From a virus: 64,000 nucleotides of DNA. Position 1 is the first letter of the stretch. Every line of letters starts with the position of its first letter. Under the pieces are notes generated by a model. The model ran no database searches. It was not told where the DNA came from and saw only the letters and a program-made list of their open reading frames with translations. Where the stretch lies: the IMG/VR virus record IMGVR_UViG_3300043673_000021, positions 33,626-97,625 of that record, one strand, 5' to 3'. Position numbers and translations under genes: made by a program. Below, piece after piece: positions 33,598-41,620 of the stretch.

Positions 33598-34238
33598 TCC
33601 TCCACAAATCCCGCGATCACAATCGACGGGTCGTGCCCCGCCGCACTCATATTCTTGGCGATAGCCAGGGCGGCGTCAGCCAGTTCATCCGCGGTCATCG
33701 GGATATATAGCCCGCCCGATGTAGGCTCCCACCCCTCGCAGTTGTAGGCCAAACTCGGAGCGTTAGAAATCTCCCCCTCGCGCACGATCCAAGCCGCCGG
33801 TGGAGACACGACCTGCACGGTGTGAACCTGAGAGGCAGACATGTGTGCGGGAACCCCGGACTGGAGAACTTCCCGATTGAACGCCATGCGGGCCTTCCGC
33901 AACGGCTCTACCTCCATCTTGCCGAGAATGCCTGAAAAGAAGCGATACTCCGTCAGGTCGATAGCGAACTCGGCGTCTGTCTCGGTCGCCCTCCAGTTGC
34001 TGACGTTTCCGTATATCAATTCGAGTGATACGTCCTGCCGGTGATTGTGTGGCGCAAGGCAGAATTCTGCCGTTGGCAGGTCGAGGCGTTTAAAGATATT
34101 GATCAGCCCATGACCCGGAGTCGCATGAAAAACACGCACCATACCAACCTCGTCGCTCACGCGCTCCGAGATAACCAAGCTGTCCACGCCCTTGACGTGA
34201 CAGTTCTTCAACCCGCTGATAAATTTCATATCTTTCAT
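33585..34238 (-). CDS. Cupin-like hypothetical protein
   Basis: PHNH...VHTV metal-ligand-like spacing. Confidence 0.55.
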   Translation of the reverse strand: MKDMKFISGLKNCHVKGVDSLVISERVSDEVGMVRVFHATPGHGLINIFKRLDLPTAEFCLAPHNHRQDVSLELIYGNVSNWRATETDAEFAIDLTEYRFFSGILGKMEVEPLRKARMAFNREVLQSGVPAHMSASQVHTVQVVSPPAAWIVREGEISNAPSLAYNCEGWEPTSGGLYIPMTADELADAALAIAKNMSAAGHDPSIVIAGFVEECEG

Positions 34239-36025: not shown

Positions 36026-36582
36026 TTGCCCTCTCCTTCGACCGCCGCCAGTGCCGCCAATGCGACCGCGTGCGGAAGTTCCTGCGCCACGCCGCTAAAT
36101 GCCTTCCCCTTCTCGAAGAACGCGATCCAGCCCTCATCCTTGAAACCTTGGCCCATGCTGGCTATCCAGCCGAGTTCCTTCATCTGATTCAGGACAGCGA
36201 GCATTTGTTCGCCGGAAGTCGAAAGCGCCGGCGGAAACCACTCCATGCCTCCGCCTGCCGTTGCGATCAAGGTCCAGCCACCACGCTTAAATCCTACGCC
36301 GGGCCAATAATCGGGCAACGCTGGCCTTCCCCATCCAAGGGCTAAAGCTAGTTCTGTGTCAAGTTTTGATGCCGACGAGAAACCCATCTTCGTCGCCTCC
36401 TTAGCCCTACGCTGGAGTATCTGGCTAACCCGAAGTTCCACCGGGATCATGCGGCGACCGGAAACCCAATAGAGGGTCGAGAGAATCGCGCCTGCAAGCA
36501 CGCGTTCTGGGCTCGGTGGAGTATTGACAAGTTGATCGACGATGTCATCGATTGCGCGTTCGACACGGGCTTCGGACTTCAT
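36022..36582 (-). CDS. Protein with phage ABA-sandwich-like C-terminal domain
   Basis: LDTELALALGW...LSTS...AVLNQM...PHAVALAALAAV. Confidence 0.55.
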   Translation of the reverse strand: MKSEARVERAIDDIVDQLVNTPPSPERVLAGAILSTLYWVSGRRMIPVELRVSQILQRRAKEATKMGFSSASKLDTELALALGWGRPALPDYWPGVGFKRGGWTLIATAGGGMEWFPPALSTSGEQMLAVLNQMKELGWIASMGQGFKDEGWIAFFEKGKAFSGVAQELPHAVALAALAAVEGEGK

Positions 36583-37566
36583 GCCGCCAATCTCCGTTCC
36601 GCGCGTCTCGCCAGTGCCCGCGCTACGAGCTCTGCCTCGATGGCTTCGGCGACTTCCGCCCAGATGCGTAGCGGGCGGTATGAGCGCTGTGTGGCAGCTT
36701 GGATTGCGAACAACTCAGCGTCTGAGAAATCGGCTATTTCCCTGTTACGGTAGAAAATCACGCGTCTCCCCTTTCGAGTGTCCATGCCAGCCACCTGTCG
36801 CCAACGTGATGTGCCTGAGAGACTCGCCTGCACGCGAGTTCGGGGTAGACCTTCGCTGCCAGATCGAACAGGAGGCAGGCCAGCCGATACCGCAACTGAT
36901 CTATCACTTTCCGCTCCCGTCCACAACCTTCGACTCCAGCCGCTTTAGCGCGCCGACGGCTTCATGTAAATCGATTCGCGCACCCACGTCGCTGTGCATC
37001 TTGGCGTCCCATTTCTTGGCAGCTTCGACTACGCGCCGCTCTGCCCTTCCTAACTCCGCGTCGCGCTCAACCGCCTGCATGTGATTCATAGCTTGCTCAA
37101 CTCCTGCCTAATAATCCCGATCACAACCAACATCAGCGCGAACATCGTCGCGATCCAGCGTCTGTGCCAGATGTCCCGCCGCGCTCGCATGAAGTCGTAG
37201 GCTTTCTGGAGCCCGGCGATTGTTTCGTTGGCCGACTCCAGTTGTGCCTTTGCCGAAATCAGGCGCATCTCGCTCATCGTTAGCTCCGGCTCCAGTTGGA
37301 TGTGCATCTTTGCCGCGAACTCGACATCGGCTTGGGTGATGTGCTTCATGCCACTTCCTCCGCTCTCACGCGCTGAATGCGCCAGTACTCCAGCATTGGT
37401 ATCGCCTTCACCTCGCGATGCTTGCAGGGGCCGAACACTCCGCAGATGAAGCACTCACGTCGCGCCCAAACTACCTCGCGGAAATCGCTCAGCGTCTCAA
37501 CGTATGCTGGCGGGTAGAAGGCACGCGCCCGACGTTCGGAGAAGGCGGCGATGGGGCTAACGAGGG

Positions 37567-39165
37567 TCATGCGGCTGCCTCCATGATTCGGCGACCAATC
37601 CAAGCCAGTACAGGAACGGCCATGCTGTTGCCTAGCGCCTTGTACCGGGGACCATCGGCTGCTTCTTTACCCCGAAAGGTAATGTTGGTAAATCCAACCG
37701 GAAACCCCTGCAAAATTTCGCATTCTTCTGGGATTAAACGTCTTACCGCAAACGTCTGGTTTCCCACGCCTTTTTGACTGCATCGCCCGGACTCTTGCTG
37801 CTTGTCCCGAGTGTCCCTCTCTTGAACTGCTGAGCATGCATCTGACAATAGCCATTGGCATGGTGTTTTCTGCCGCACCCCAAAACCGCACACGCCTTGT
37901 TTGGGTTCGATTCCATTTCGGATCGAATCGGAACAAACTGATTGTCCTTGATGAGTAGCGGATCGCCATATTTCTTGTAGCGCTGATAGTGCTTGGCGCA
38001 TAATGAAAATCCCTTCGCTGGCTTCCCACATACCAGACAAAAAGGTTTCTTGCGATGAAGCCGAATATGGCAACTCCGACAGATCCGCTCCAAATTCTCG
38101 GGTGAGTTGTTCTGCCAGTTCTCGTCTTTGTGGTGAACATCCGAAGCCTTCGGTTTGCCACAATGGCAACACGCTCCCTTTGGGCATATCTTCCGTGCGT
38201 GATAATGGGCCGTCTCCCACGATGGGTCCGCTATCACCGGCTTCGCATCGAATGCTTTCGCCATGCAAATCTGATCGCAGTATTTGCGGCGGTTGAAGTG
38301 AATTAAATACTCCAAGTCCCCATTCGGCAAACGCTTCCTCTCCAACTTCTTGGAGCAGAAGGTGCAATATTTTTCCGGTGTGGTTTTCTTGTGTGCTGGC
38401 ATGGCTGATACCATTATACTGCAAGGTATCATTCTCGGCTACATTAAATGCGACGGCGATTTGGCCACCTCCATTCGCGTGGCTCCCGTCGTGGCCCATA
38501 CTGCGCAGCGTCGGCGCAATTTGACCTGCATCAGCGCCGTGATCCTTGCAGGAAAAAGCCACCATGCCGGGGTCTCCATGACGCGTTGTGACTGGAGGGA
38601 AAGTATCCTCGCTGACAGAAAGGTTCGTGTCGCCAGCAGAATTACAGAACCCAATCGCCGGAGGGTGCGCCCCGCTCGCTAACGGATGGCATGGGTCGCC
38701 AGTCTTCGGGTTGCTCCGATTCGCCTTGCTCGTAATTTGCGTTGTGTCAAAGCAAATGGTCGGCACCCCAGCCCCGCCGCCATCCGTGGAGGCGATCGGC
38801 GGCGCAATCTCGTCTGGCGCAAACCCGTCCTGCCCACATGCGCGAAAAGCTACAGCGTGTTGCTTGCCCGATTGCAAGGTAAACATCGGGTCGCCATCCT
38901 GTCCGATACCGATACCAGCCCGCACGTCATCAGTGGACTTACCCGTTCTCGCCCCTGCCTCAAGGATCGGGATGGCTACCGCTATGATCGGAGTTCCTCT
39001 CCCCGTGCCATCCTCTAAGGCATCGAAGCCATCGGCGCGAAGAGAATGGGTAATTGCGGTGGACTCGTACAATGCTCTCGCCTCTGTGCCTAGAGTGGCC
39101 GCTGTTTCTGACTCGCTCCAGTACCCCTGTCCGGTAGCTACGAAAGTTTCCGATTCAGCGTCCAT
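37567..39165 (-). CDS. C5 cytosine methyltransferase, C-terminal part (modular variable region plus motifs IX and X)
   Basis: RRLIPEECEILQGFP and RYKALGNSMAVPV; about seven short modules upstream. Confidence 0.85.
   Translation of the reverse strand: MDAESETFVATGQGYWSESETAATLGTEARALYESTAITHSLRADGFDALEDGTGRGTPIIAVAIPILEAGARTGKSTDDVRAGIGIGQDGDPMFTLQSGKQHAVAFRACGQDGFAPDEIAPPIASTDGGGAGVPTICFDTTQITSKANRSNPKTGDPCHPLASGAHPPAIGFCNSAGDTNLSVSEDTFPPVTTRHGDPGMVAFSCKDHGADAGQIAPTLRSMGHDGSHANGGGQIAVAFNVAENDTLQYNGISHASTQENHTGKILHLLLQEVGEEAFAEWGLGVFNSLQPPQILRSDLHGESIRCEAGDSGPIVGDGPLSRTEDMPKGSVLPLWQTEGFGCSPQRRELAEQLTREFGADLSELPYSASSQETFLSGMWEASEGIFIMRQALSALQEIWRSATHQGQSVCSDSIRNGIEPKQGVCGFGVRQKTPCQWLLSDACSAVQERDTRDKQQESGRCSQKGVGNQTFAVRRLIPEECEILQGFPVGFTNITFRGKEAADGPRYKALGNSMAVPVLAWIGRRIMEAAA
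37743..38402 (-). CDS. HNH endonuclease overprinted inside the MTase C-terminal ORF
   Basis: CTFC...YCDQIC; CCHCG...DVHHKDENWQNNSPENLERICRSCHIRLH; two C-terminal Cys/His fingers. Confidence 0.85.
   Translation of the reverse strand: MPAHKKTTPEKYCTFCSKKLERKRLPNGDLEYLIHFNRRKYCDQICMAKAFDAKPVIADPSWETAHYHARKICPKGACCHCGKPKASDVHHKDENWQNNSPENLERICRSCHIRLHRKKPFCLVCGKPAKGFSLCAKHYQRYKKYGDPLLIKDNQFVPIRSEMESNPNKACAVLGCGRKHHANGYCQMHAQQFKRGTLGTSSKSPGDAVKKAWETRRLR
38406..38431 (-). promoter_or_regulatory. TATAAT box enclosed in the inverted repeat TGATACC/GGTATCA just upstream of the nested HNH
   Basis: TATAAT at 38418-38413 on the minus strand; arms at 38406-38412 and 38425-38431. Confidence 0.5.
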
Positions 39166-39514
39166 ACGTTTCTGCCCCCCCCGCGTTAAGGCACATAGAA
39201 ATCTCGGGAACTCCGCTCATGCTTGCCTCTGATTCGATCAAGCCAAGCGTTACAAGCCTGTGGCAATTGGGGCACAGAACCATAACATTGCTAGGGTGAT
39301 AACCAGCTACTGGATTATGCCGATGGCGATCGCAGGGTGCCTTGTCCCATCCGCAGAGTTCACATTGAGAGTTGTCGATGATGCGCCTATTGCTTGGCTC
39401 ATCCCGTCGATGGCATCCATGGCAAAGGCGGTCATATCGCGGATCTCCGTTTGGAGTTCTCCCCTTATTTCTCGCTAGATTTTCGCAGCCTTCGGTTTCG
39501 CAGATCGGCCTCAT
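39155..39514 (-). CDS. HNH endonuclease splitting the MTase
   Basis: CELCG...DRHRH...NVMVLCPNCHR; tail (EISMCLNAGG) looks like MTase variable-region sequence. Confidence 0.8.
   Translation of the reverse strand: MRPICETEGCENLARNKGRTPNGDPRYDRLCHGCHRRDEPSNRRIIDNSQCELCGWDKAPCDRHRHNPVAGYHPSNVMVLCPNCHRLVTLGLIESEASMSGVPEISMCLNAGGAETYGR
39175..39182 (-). repeat. G8 homopolymer at a frame break in the MTase variable region
   Basis: Removing one G gives CLNAGGQKRMDAESETFV, continuous with ORF 37567..39165. Confidence 0.8.
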
Positions 39515-39566
39515 TTACCCTCCAACACAAAATATCCATGCGCCTCATCGACACTTCCGCGCGCCG

Positions 39567-40369
<803 letters not shown>

Positions 40370-40373
<4 letters not shown>

Positions 40374-40585
40374 GCAGACCCCACAATTTCGTTCTTGCCC
40401 TGAAGATTGCACGCCCAGCAATGCGAACCTTCATCCGCGTCTGCATATACCTGATCGAATGCCGCGCCGACTATCCCAGTACCGGGGCAACCGTTCTCCT
40501 CAATCCGGAACTTCATGGACTCGGCAGTCTCGCCTTCGGGTATTTCGACTTCAATTTCGAACGTGCAGCGCACCTTGATCTTCAT
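40370..40585 (-). CDS. Hypothetical protein
   Basis: Coupled on both sides. Confidence 0.55.
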
Positions 40586-40808
40586 CGCGTCTCCTCAACC
40601 CACTCAAGCGTCGTCCGGTAGACTTCGCGATACCGCACCTTCGCTGCAATGTACGCCTGACGCATCGCGTAGATCGAAGCGCAGACGACCGCCAGAATGC
40701 GCGTGATACCCACCGTGCGCACCCAGATACCGGCTGCCGGGATGCCGATGCAGGTGCTGAGCATGAGGACGTCAGCGCCGGGCGAGGTTAGGGATTCGGC
40801 GATCATAT

Positions 40809-41114
40809 TTACATCCACGCCTTTACGCACCACGCGAAGCCAACTGAGAACACGGGAGACAGAAGCATCTCAGCGTAGGTCGCCCAGATTGACTTGTCGG
40901 AATTATTCGCGTTGGAAGTTTTCCCGACCAACATCGCGATCAATACCGACAATCCCAATGCCACAGAGCGCGATGGTGCAGGGATGCTCCATGCTGGCGT
41001 AATAAACCAACCCCATATCGTTGTCAGCGCCCAATCCTTTATCAATACCGAGGCCACGAGGACTGGGACTAGAGAGATGCATCCCAGCAACGCTTCGTCT
41101 TTTGAGATTTCCAT
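40809..41114 (-). CDS. Hypothetical membrane protein
   Basis: Three hydrophobic segments; AAAGGA RBS. Confidence 0.6.
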   Translation of the reverse strand: MEISKDEALLGCISLVPVLVASVLIKDWALTTIWGWFITPAWSIPAPSRSVALGLSVLIAMLVGKTSNANNSDKSIWATYAEMLLSPVFSVGFAWCVKAWM

Positions 41115-41124
41115 TGTTTCCTTT

Positions 41125-41620
41125 CAATGGCGGGCCGCACGCGCGACCCGCTTCGTTTCCCTCTCAGTTAGTTGCGACCGCCAGACAGGGTCCAATTCCC
41201 TGCGGCAGGCGCTGGTCGTTCTTTCGGTCGATCCGGTGGGCTTGAGAGTTTGGCCATCACCACGACACCGATCTGTACCAACGGACTTTCTGTCCTCACA
41301 CTCTGGAAACCGGGGAACCCCGCGCAGATTTTCGTGCGCTAGTTAAAATTCCCCGGCTGTTCGCAATCGGACCCGAAGCGGCGGGATGACAATATACACG
41401 CCGAACCAAGTTACGGCGCAACGTATCCTCGAACATTCGAGCGCGTGCGAAAACTAAAACTTTTGCGAGCCTCCCAGATGGATTTGGACACCTCCCCCGA
41501 GATTTACCGTCCATCCGGAAAGCTTGCAAAATACCGGCGGCTCACAACCAAGCAAACCGCCGGTGAAGGAAATGCTACTTACGACGGAGATAACCCGCCG
41601 CTTTCCCTTTGGGGGAACTT
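41125..41620 (-). ncRNA. Candidate structured non-coding RNA (about 500 nt, run of hairpins)
   Basis: No convincing ORF; many inverted repeats, e.g. CCGGGGAA/TTCCCCGG, TTTTGCGAGC/GCTTGCAAAA, ACCGGCGG/CCGCCGGT; strand inferred from the operon. Confidence 0.5.

Follow-up and report, generated by a model that had tools for sequence, protein, structure and literature searches.

Free-standing homing endonucleases split phage genes, as mobE does in nrdA of Aeromonas phage Aeh1. An arrangement of another kind was described in mycobacteriophage methylases, where the ShiLan domain, first reported as a cryptic insert that contains no stops and is distributed disjunctly (PMC9957025; Gosselin et al. 2023), was later found to hide an out-of-frame HNH gene (PMC11855218; Arsenault, Gosselin & Gogarten 2025, Genes). 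The ShiLan HNH gene has no ribosome-binding site that could be detected nearby and was proposed to rely on leaderless initiation, and a second case was presented in an insertion in the gp60 methylase of phage Pacc40 (PMC11855218). Here, we describe an element with this architecture in a 64,000-nucleotide (nt) stretch of viral DNA (positions 33,626 to 97,625 of IMG/VR record IMGVR_UViG_3300043673_000021; this whole stretch is referred to as the window), in which an open reading frame (ORF) for an HNH/zinc-finger endonuclease lies out of frame inside a gene for a C5 cytosine methyltransferase (MTase). We regard it as likely that this element is a mobile HNH homing cassette that is dual-coding and read through, and that is not removed from its host gene at the RNA or protein level. 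Coordinates are positions in the window, all relevant genes are on the minus strand, and labels of the form L### denote related loci that were compared with the window.

In the MTase, the insert follows the last recognition module and precedes motif IX. It is part of a C-terminal MTase ORF (37567..39165, minus strand; 532 amino acids [aa]) that contains the recognition modules, the insert, and motifs IX-X and that matches Pfam PF00145 with 28.1 bits. Alignment with the insert-free homologues of Pseudomonas phage vB_PaeS-D14E and Caulobacter phage DMCA places the junctions of the insert at ...GGQIAVAF and AVRRLIPEEC, with an uncertainty of a few codons at the left border, and delimits a segment of 696 nt, or 232 codons (37750..38445, minus strand), that contains no stop in the MTase frame. 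A preliminary description of this DNA, made from the sequence alone, had recognized about 690 nt that encode a 219-aa HNH/zinc-finger protein while the MTase frame on the same strand stays free of stops, and the alignment that it proposed confirms this and sets the extra segment directly before AVRRLIPEEC. The GC content of the insert is 0.50, versus 0.58 in the rest of the C-terminal MTase ORF. Nearly all of the insert is occupied by the HNH ORF (37743..38402, minus strand; 219 aa plus TAA), which is offset by +1 relative to the MTase frame and takes up 660 of the 696 nt (~95%), with 36 nt lying outside it. The inner ORF extends at most over 38432..37743, and an alignment of 24 relatives identifies its third Met, at 38402 (MPAHKK...), as the conserved start. 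Its TAA stop (37745-37743) arises where motif IX encodes Val-Arg (gcg gTA Aga) and overlaps the first two codons of the segment encoding motifs IX-X (37570..37749, minus strand; AVRRLIPEECEILQGFP ... GNSMAVP). The 5' leader of the cassette (38403..38445, minus strand; MTase-frame translation NVAENDTLQYNGIS) carries a TATAAT at 38418..38413, 10 nt 5' of the ATG and within the loop that a 7-bp inverted repeat (38431-38425 / 38412-38406) would form, and a TTT codon stands at both borders of the insert; the perfect hexamer, its inverted repeat, and the bordering TTT codons had all been pointed out previously and are present as described.

When the DNA of phage ShiLan (L148) was compared directly with that of the window, the traits of a ShiLan-type element were found in the latter: an extra segment in a methylase, a stop-free host frame, an alternative-frame HNH ORF that nearly fills the segment, no intron or intein, and a disjunct distribution. 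Both inserts consist almost wholly of an out-of-frame HNH/zinc-finger ORF that terminates at the 3' border of the insert, both lack an intron or intein signature and are disjunct among related methylases, and the host-frame peptide of each is poorly predicted except for a small helical element. The two differ, however, in the host methylase (an N6/N4 amino-methyltransferase, PF01555, in ShiLan versus a C5 MTase, PF00145, in the window), in the type of HNH protein (HNH_3, I-HmuI-like, versus a CxxC...HH...N...CxxCH motif), and in the frame of the HNH gene relative to its host (+2 versus +1). The ShiLan and window HNH proteins are 29% identical over only 52 aa of the catalytic core, tblastn searches returned no mycobacteriophage methylase, and homology of both the element and its host methylase, as expected of a single lineage, was not found. 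Copies of the ShiLan element are few and near-identical and occur in mycobacteriophages, whereas the lineage of the window occurs in many phyla, at 35-69% identity and at two insertion sites, and most of it possesses a Shine-Dalgarno site of the kind not detected near the ShiLan HNH gene. Judged by these sequence comparisons, the window element appears to work like that of ShiLan but is a separate lineage.

The other described systems are more distant. The Pacc40 gp60 insertion likewise represents an independent case of a phage methylase that contains a nuclease-like ORF out of frame, and this ORF has free-standing relatives beside methylase genes, as at L054 in the present family, but it belongs to an AP2/HNH-like family (a less certain annotation) and occupies another site in another host methylase, and we set it apart on the basis of its description. 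Free-standing endonucleases that split genes resemble the window element in that they occupy a conserved host gene and are not carried by an intron or intein, but they leave their host cut into two polypeptides, whereas the host frame of the window element is open and probably read through; the split layout recurs in two members of the HNH lineage (L056 and L060) and in a second HNH gene in the window. HNH enzymes borne by introns or inteins (I-HmuI and others) share the HNH catalytic fold and a presumed cycle in which the empty allele is cut and the element is copied during repair, but the window element has neither a ribozyme nor a protein-splicing domain, and the cost to its host would be reduced by dual coding. 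A literature search found no paper on such elements beyond the ShiLan and Pacc40 publications. This kind of element was thus first published in 2025, and the window contributes a new, widespread lineage.

The principal evidence for dual coding is the avoidance of stops in the host frame. When the HNH protein was held fixed and its synonymous codons were redrawn from the codon usage of the window in 20,000 draws, a mean of 11.7 stops was expected in the MTase frame, where none is observed, and not one of the 20,000 resamplings was stop-free; the third frame contains 3 stops, against 3.5 expected. With an offset of +1, a host-frame stop arises only where an HNH codon with T in its third position is followed by one that begins with AA, AG, or GA, and in the window, T precedes 0 of 65 such contexts while ending 46 of the 218 HNH codons overall. 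The same rule was followed throughout a set of 68 loci that match the window HNH protein in tblastn searches at an E value of <1e-20 and that were drawn from viral contigs, species genomes, and GenBank phages. In the 58 of these with a clean HNH ORF, for which ~814 host-frame stops would be expected, T precedes AA, AG, or GA codons in 0 of 2,879 cases, versus 27% before other codons; in the four relatives that have stops in the MTase frame, T is common in these contexts. In all, 64 of the 68 loci have zero MTase-frame stops across the HNH match, always in the same relative frame, whereas the other frame has 2 to 18 stops. Chance as the cause of the open host frame is excluded statistically, and selection for the open frame is very strong across the family. 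The preliminary description had proposed both checks, in that it called for a test of stop depletion in the MTase frame and regarded common stops in homologous inserts as incompatible with dual coding.

Splicing or bypass would relieve the need for an open frame, and the persistence of that frame in 64 divergent loci argues against the removal of the insert. Homing endonuclease genes in phage genes are usually carried in introns or inteins, and the flanking TTT codons could serve as take-off and landing codons, which makes it worth asking whether the insert is removed as a self-splicing intron, as an intein, or by translational bypass, with the open frame being incidental; yet with removal, there would be no selection to keep all 64 loci free of stops. 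An Rfam search of positions 36500-41500 found no family, introns included, at an E value of ≤1, and because the HNH ORF fills 660 of the 696 nt, with only 36 nt outside it, there is no space for the ribozyme core of a group I intron. The insert begins with Asn and ends with TF, followed by Ala, and so has neither the Cys or Ser start nor the His-Asn end of an intein; a Pfam scan of the 532-aa ORF detected no intein or Hint domain, and the host-frame structural model is helical or of low confidence. These border residues and searches bear out the earlier impression that intein and group I intron signatures are missing, and no standard self-splicing intron model fits. The suggestion, also made earlier, that the insert is skipped by translational bypass finds no support in view of the strong family-wide selection for an open frame. 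The bypassed gap in T4 gene 60 is 50 nt long, and a bypass of 696 nt would be ~14 times that length. We consider removal by any of these routes to be very unlikely, and translation of the host protein straight through the insert is the probable outcome.

The HNH frame is the primary frame of the overlap. Close pairs of HNH genes differ mostly at HNH third codon positions (22, 16, and 69 differences at positions 1, 2, and 3, respectively, between L006 and L005), and because substitutions concentrate there, the HNH frame is under purifying selection. Nine residues (C78, C81, H90, H91, N103, C108, C111, H112, and H116) are invariant in 34 sequences, and of the 25 residues that do not vary within the family, the window protein retains all, among them those of the CxxC pairs, the DVHH motif, the conserved Asn, and the CxxCH motif; by sequence, it thus has the predicted catalytic His, Asn, and His together with the putative zinc-binding CxxC pairs. 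The protein matches PHROG phrog_1271 ('HNH endonuclease') with an E value of 3.9e-16, reaches 21.2 bits against Pfam HNH_3, under the cut-off of 24.8, and has some relatives with precomputed assignments to PF01844 or PF13392. A profile search of PDB sequences gave weak matches, the best being the HNH domain of IscB (E = 0.095). Its AlphaFold2 model has a predicted local distance difference test (pLDDT) score of 91.6, and residues 56-117 align to the GVE2 HNH structure 5h0m (Z score of 5.6, root mean square deviation of 3.7, 61 aa). Further structural matches comprise 8yha, 4h9d, 6ghc, and 1u3e and include Cas5-HNH, Gme HNH, EcoKMcrA, and I-HmuI (1u3e, Z score of 3.9); HNH nucleases account for the top five and most other matches, albeit with modest Z scores, while a Foldseek search with the model yielded no match at an E value of ≤0.001. 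The model is consistent with a beta-beta-alpha-metal HNH (His-Me finger) fold.

These properties bear on the possibility that the segment is instead an old, integral domain of the MTase that became overprinted with an HNH-like ORF, or that the second frame is a chance or pseudogene artefact. The read-through peptide can be aligned across many loci, and the insert, as read in the MTase frame, is found in 52 MTase proteins in the database, as an integral domain would be. Against this, the HNH protein belongs to a bona fide family with non-overprinted relatives and a confidently modeled HNH fold, substitutions are concentrated at HNH third positions, and MTases without the insert are common, some of them near-identical to insert-bearing ones; an artefact is opposed by the statistical exclusion of chance. 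Both forms of this explanation seem to us extremely improbable.

A large protein database contains at least 181 relatives of the window HNH protein, and the 68 loci are 35-69% identical to this protein, with GC contents of 31-65%. In 64 of these loci, the open frame is part of a C5 MTase ORF, which is full-length (with PCQ, ENV, RRLTPxE, and GNS motifs) wherever the locus extends far enough. Family members occur in metagenome-assembled genomes labeled Peptococcaceae, Actinomycetales, Acidobacteriia, Planctomycetaceae, and several Proteobacteria, and one is present in Staphylococcus phage CUB-EPI_14 (L007, ON325435.2, GC content of 0.35), where an annotated 601-aa MTase coding sequence covers a 160-aa HNH ORF. 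That HNH ORF (2501-2983 in L007), which lies inside gp45 (DNA-cytosine methyltransferase), lacks annotation; CUB-EPI_14, as a cultured GenBank phage, would offer a convenient experimental system for the element. Three size classes of HNH protein can be distinguished (~123, ~163, and 200-220 aa). Most insertions lie just before motif IX, where the HNH stop is usually supplied by the Leu-Thr codons of RRLT, and eight loci have the insert between QGFPDxY and motif X. Read-through is the usual but not the sole solution in this HNH lineage: L056 and L060 have the HNH gene at or beside the motif IX site, with 23 and 11 MTase-frame stops, respectively, and a split host MTase. In L054, the HNH gene is directly downstream of a complete MTase, and in L059, it occurs without a visible MTase.

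Most MTases related to that of the window lack the insert (L129-L132 and L134-L136). One pair illustrates the polymorphism: L133, which has the insert, and L132, which does not, have near-identical recognition regions up to the junction ...GDAAPCVAV, after which L133 continues with the insert and L132 with a short linker, before MAVRRLTP. HNH and MTase identities are weakly correlated across 496 pairs (r = 0.32), and HNH pairs that are 70-78% identical reside in MTases whose catalytic cores are 38-53% identical. The patchy presence, the two insertion sites, and the weak co-divergence with the host fit a homing element. Some HNH ORFs appear truncated although the host frame is still open, which fits decay of the nuclease after fixation while the host gene remains under selection. 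The earlier proposal, in which dual coding keeps a homing element from destroying its host gene, is therefore supported by stop avoidance and by the patchy distribution, and it is from this distribution that we infer the homing of the cassette.

On this basis, we propose that a cassette of ~0.7 kb, consisting of a short leader, the HNH ORF, and a stop created by the opening codons of motif IX, was inserted directly upstream of motif IX in a phage C5 MTase gene. Ribosomes translating the MTase would traverse the insert in frame 0, adding a 232-aa, largely low-confidence helical peptide between the target-recognition region and motifs IX-X, and synonymous codon choice in the HNH gene, with no T-ending codon before AA, AG, or GA, would keep the MTase frame open. 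The HNH protein would be made separately, by internal initiation at the ATG at 38402 in the +1 frame. It would presumably cut insert-free MTase alleles near the conserved motif IX sequence, and recombinational repair would then copy the cassette into the cut allele.

Separate production of the HNH protein is suggested by its start sites. Anti-Shine-Dalgarno pairing at HNH starts averages -5.8 kcal/mol, versus -3.6 kcal/mol at control sites in the same MTase ORFs (p = 1.4e-7), and reaches -6 kcal/mol or lower at 51% of HNH starts versus 22% of controls; with these stronger Shine-Dalgarno sites, ordinary internal initiation on the MTase mRNA is the simplest model. A subgroup with weak Shine-Dalgarno matches (the window, L005, L006, L012, L019, L020, and L022) shares a hexamer resembling TATAAT, 7-10 nt upstream of the ATG, a geometry that might suit a leaderless or near-leaderless HNH transcript. 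A programmed-frameshift fusion of MTase and HNH protein was also considered as a candidate and was dropped, since several loci have a stop in the HNH frame 0-2 codons before the HNH start.

Several observations weigh against our interpretation of the element as a read-through homing cassette, or against parts of it. The window HNH gene itself has a weak Shine-Dalgarno match (-2.9 kcal/mol), and a sigma-70 consensus scan of the gene strand around the TATAAT located no -35 partner or full promoter, for which reason we do not take the hexamer for a complete sigma-70 promoter. The host MTase is also interrupted by a second HNH gene and by a frameshift at a tract of eight G residues (G8), which weakens the claim that the window MTase still works but leaves the interpretation of the insert unchanged. 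The open frame in the window may, in part, be a legacy of a functional ancestor in the recent past. Moreover, nuclease activity and its target, homing, independent initiation, and a still-working MTase are the parts of the proposal that we infer. Finally, near-fixed synonymous codons in the HNH gene maintain host-frame residues well beyond what stop avoidance demands, and a purely selfish passenger would not be expected to impose constraint on the read-through peptide.

The codons in question encode HNH residues as Asn AAT (35 of 37), Leu TTG (39 of 43), Arg CGT (32 of 43), Gly GGG (34 of 43), and Cys TGT (32 of 42), which correspond in the host frame to Trp, Gly, Phe, Gly, and Trp, respectively. 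Across the same 26 loci, the share of the top codon at conserved residues is 0.70 in the overlap versus 0.55 in MTase-only regions (p = 3e-5), and it is still 0.65 in the overlap once stop-avoidance contexts are left out (p = 0.006). The host-frame model of the insert DNA is mostly of low confidence (mean pLDDT of 59.8, with 118 of 298 residues below 50), but, apart from motifs IX-X, one helix pair over ...ILHLLLQEVGEEAFAEWGLGVF... is predicted confidently (pLDDT of ~90). Other measures are less telling. Pairwise identity at four-fold sites is 0.40 in the overlap and 0.42 elsewhere and thus reveals no extra constraint, although this global test is blunt because the sites are saturated; and a codon-resampling test of MTase-frame conservation gave a z score of 27, but since the third, noncoding frame gave 25, it cannot separate selection from shared ancestry and was not relied upon. 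This mixed evidence is suggestive of selection on the read-through peptide in its own right. It is possible, though we hold it with some doubt, that dual coding works in both directions, with the peptide, especially the hairpin ...LRxLRxxIGEEAFxxWGLG..., under purifying selection as a structural module that lets the MTase work with the cassette or that the MTase needs in order to do so.

A stronger form of this idea is that the cassette has been co-opted and is no longer, or not only, selfish: the peptide would be a selected part of the MTase, or nuclease and MTase would form a linked pair, for instance a unit resembling a restriction-modification system or an addiction unit, where the nuclease could not be kept without the methylase. 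The excess in top-codon share, the near-fixed codons that preserve MTase-frame residues, and the helical hairpin that spans exactly those residues would be explained by it, as would the almost constant association of the HNH lineage with C5 MTases. The codon excess could, however, reflect HNH genes that are more closely related to each other than their hosts are, the third-frame control being similar, and neither the four-fold sites nor the low-confidence model of most of the peptide points to a selected domain. The insert is missing from most related MTases, and its presence/absence polymorphism and weak co-divergence with the host are better explained by a parasite. We regard co-option as unlikely and retain the homing cassette as the preferred interpretation.

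The state of the host MTase in the window is unusual in other respects. Motifs I-VIII and IX-X of a C5 MTase are all present but not in a single uninterrupted frame: motifs I-VIII are encoded by an N-terminal ORF (39567..40421, minus strand; 284 aa, PF00145 with 87.6 bits) whose frame differs from that of the C-terminal ORF, whereas the MTase is uninterrupted in relatives such as L005. The second HNH gene, which is unrelated to the first and outside the present finding (39155..39514, minus strand; 119 aa, phrog_2255 with an E value of 1.2e-4), splits the variable region of the MTase, with MTase junctions at 39567 and 39165. The host frame meets stops soon after the junction, as in a classical gene split. 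The second HNH frame continues into the host segment ...EISMCLNAGG, and the G8 tract (39182-39175, minus strand) then shifts it into the C-terminal ORF (QKRMDAESETFV...); with seven G residues, the second HNH gene and the C-terminal half of the MTase would be a single ORF that matches homologues (CLNAGGMGRxDxETETLV). The G8 tract may represent either a homopolymer error or a phase switch, and the window MTase may function as two chains, may be switchable, or may lack activity. A tetranucleotide repeat of nine units (39651-39686, minus strand), close to the end of the N-terminal MTase ORF, encodes DRQT three times and is a tract of the type that causes phase variation.

The HNH genes related to this second one are free-standing, and in L141 and L142 they immediately precede C5 MTases. 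The relative in L142 (798-1316) opens with a copy of MTase motif I (MIYGSVCSGIESAS), and the complete MTase that follows (1301-2683) starts with the same motif I; the copy looks like a target duplication left by insertion. In the window, a 128-aa ORF in another frame (39686-40072, minus strand) overlaps the catalytic half of the MTase, and its segment ...SLSDxL...YFLSPRACAGILRRAEKRGKELP... is conserved, recurring in L005 (1819-2385), L054, L141, and L142. In L131, a 764-aa ORF starting at 1583 has an HNH_3-like domain (...LHRVIWIAENG...IDHINNDKTDNRIANLQLL...) in frame between motifs IX and X and is a fusion solution, not an out-of-frame one.

Relative to the published cases, what is new here is the family-wide evidence of stop avoidance, which is stronger than that in PMC11855218, together with Shine-Dalgarno sites at most HNH starts and hints of a constrained read-through peptide. 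There are practical consequences for annotation, as gene callers report either the MTase or the HNH gene but not both, and the read-through insert of ~160-230 aa in the MTase could pass for a new domain. The family is also a clean natural data set on the upkeep of a second frame, with one synonymous rule that has no exception in 2,879 contexts, and, if dual coding does operate in both directions, a selfish nuclease gene would have been shaped in two frames over long evolutionary times. The prevailing view is that homing genes persist in essential or useful genes only through removal by introns or inteins or through an intergenic position. This lineage points to a third, splicing-free route, read-through dual coding, which extends beyond the mycobacteriophages and is old and widespread in the C5 MTases of phages and prophages of many phyla.

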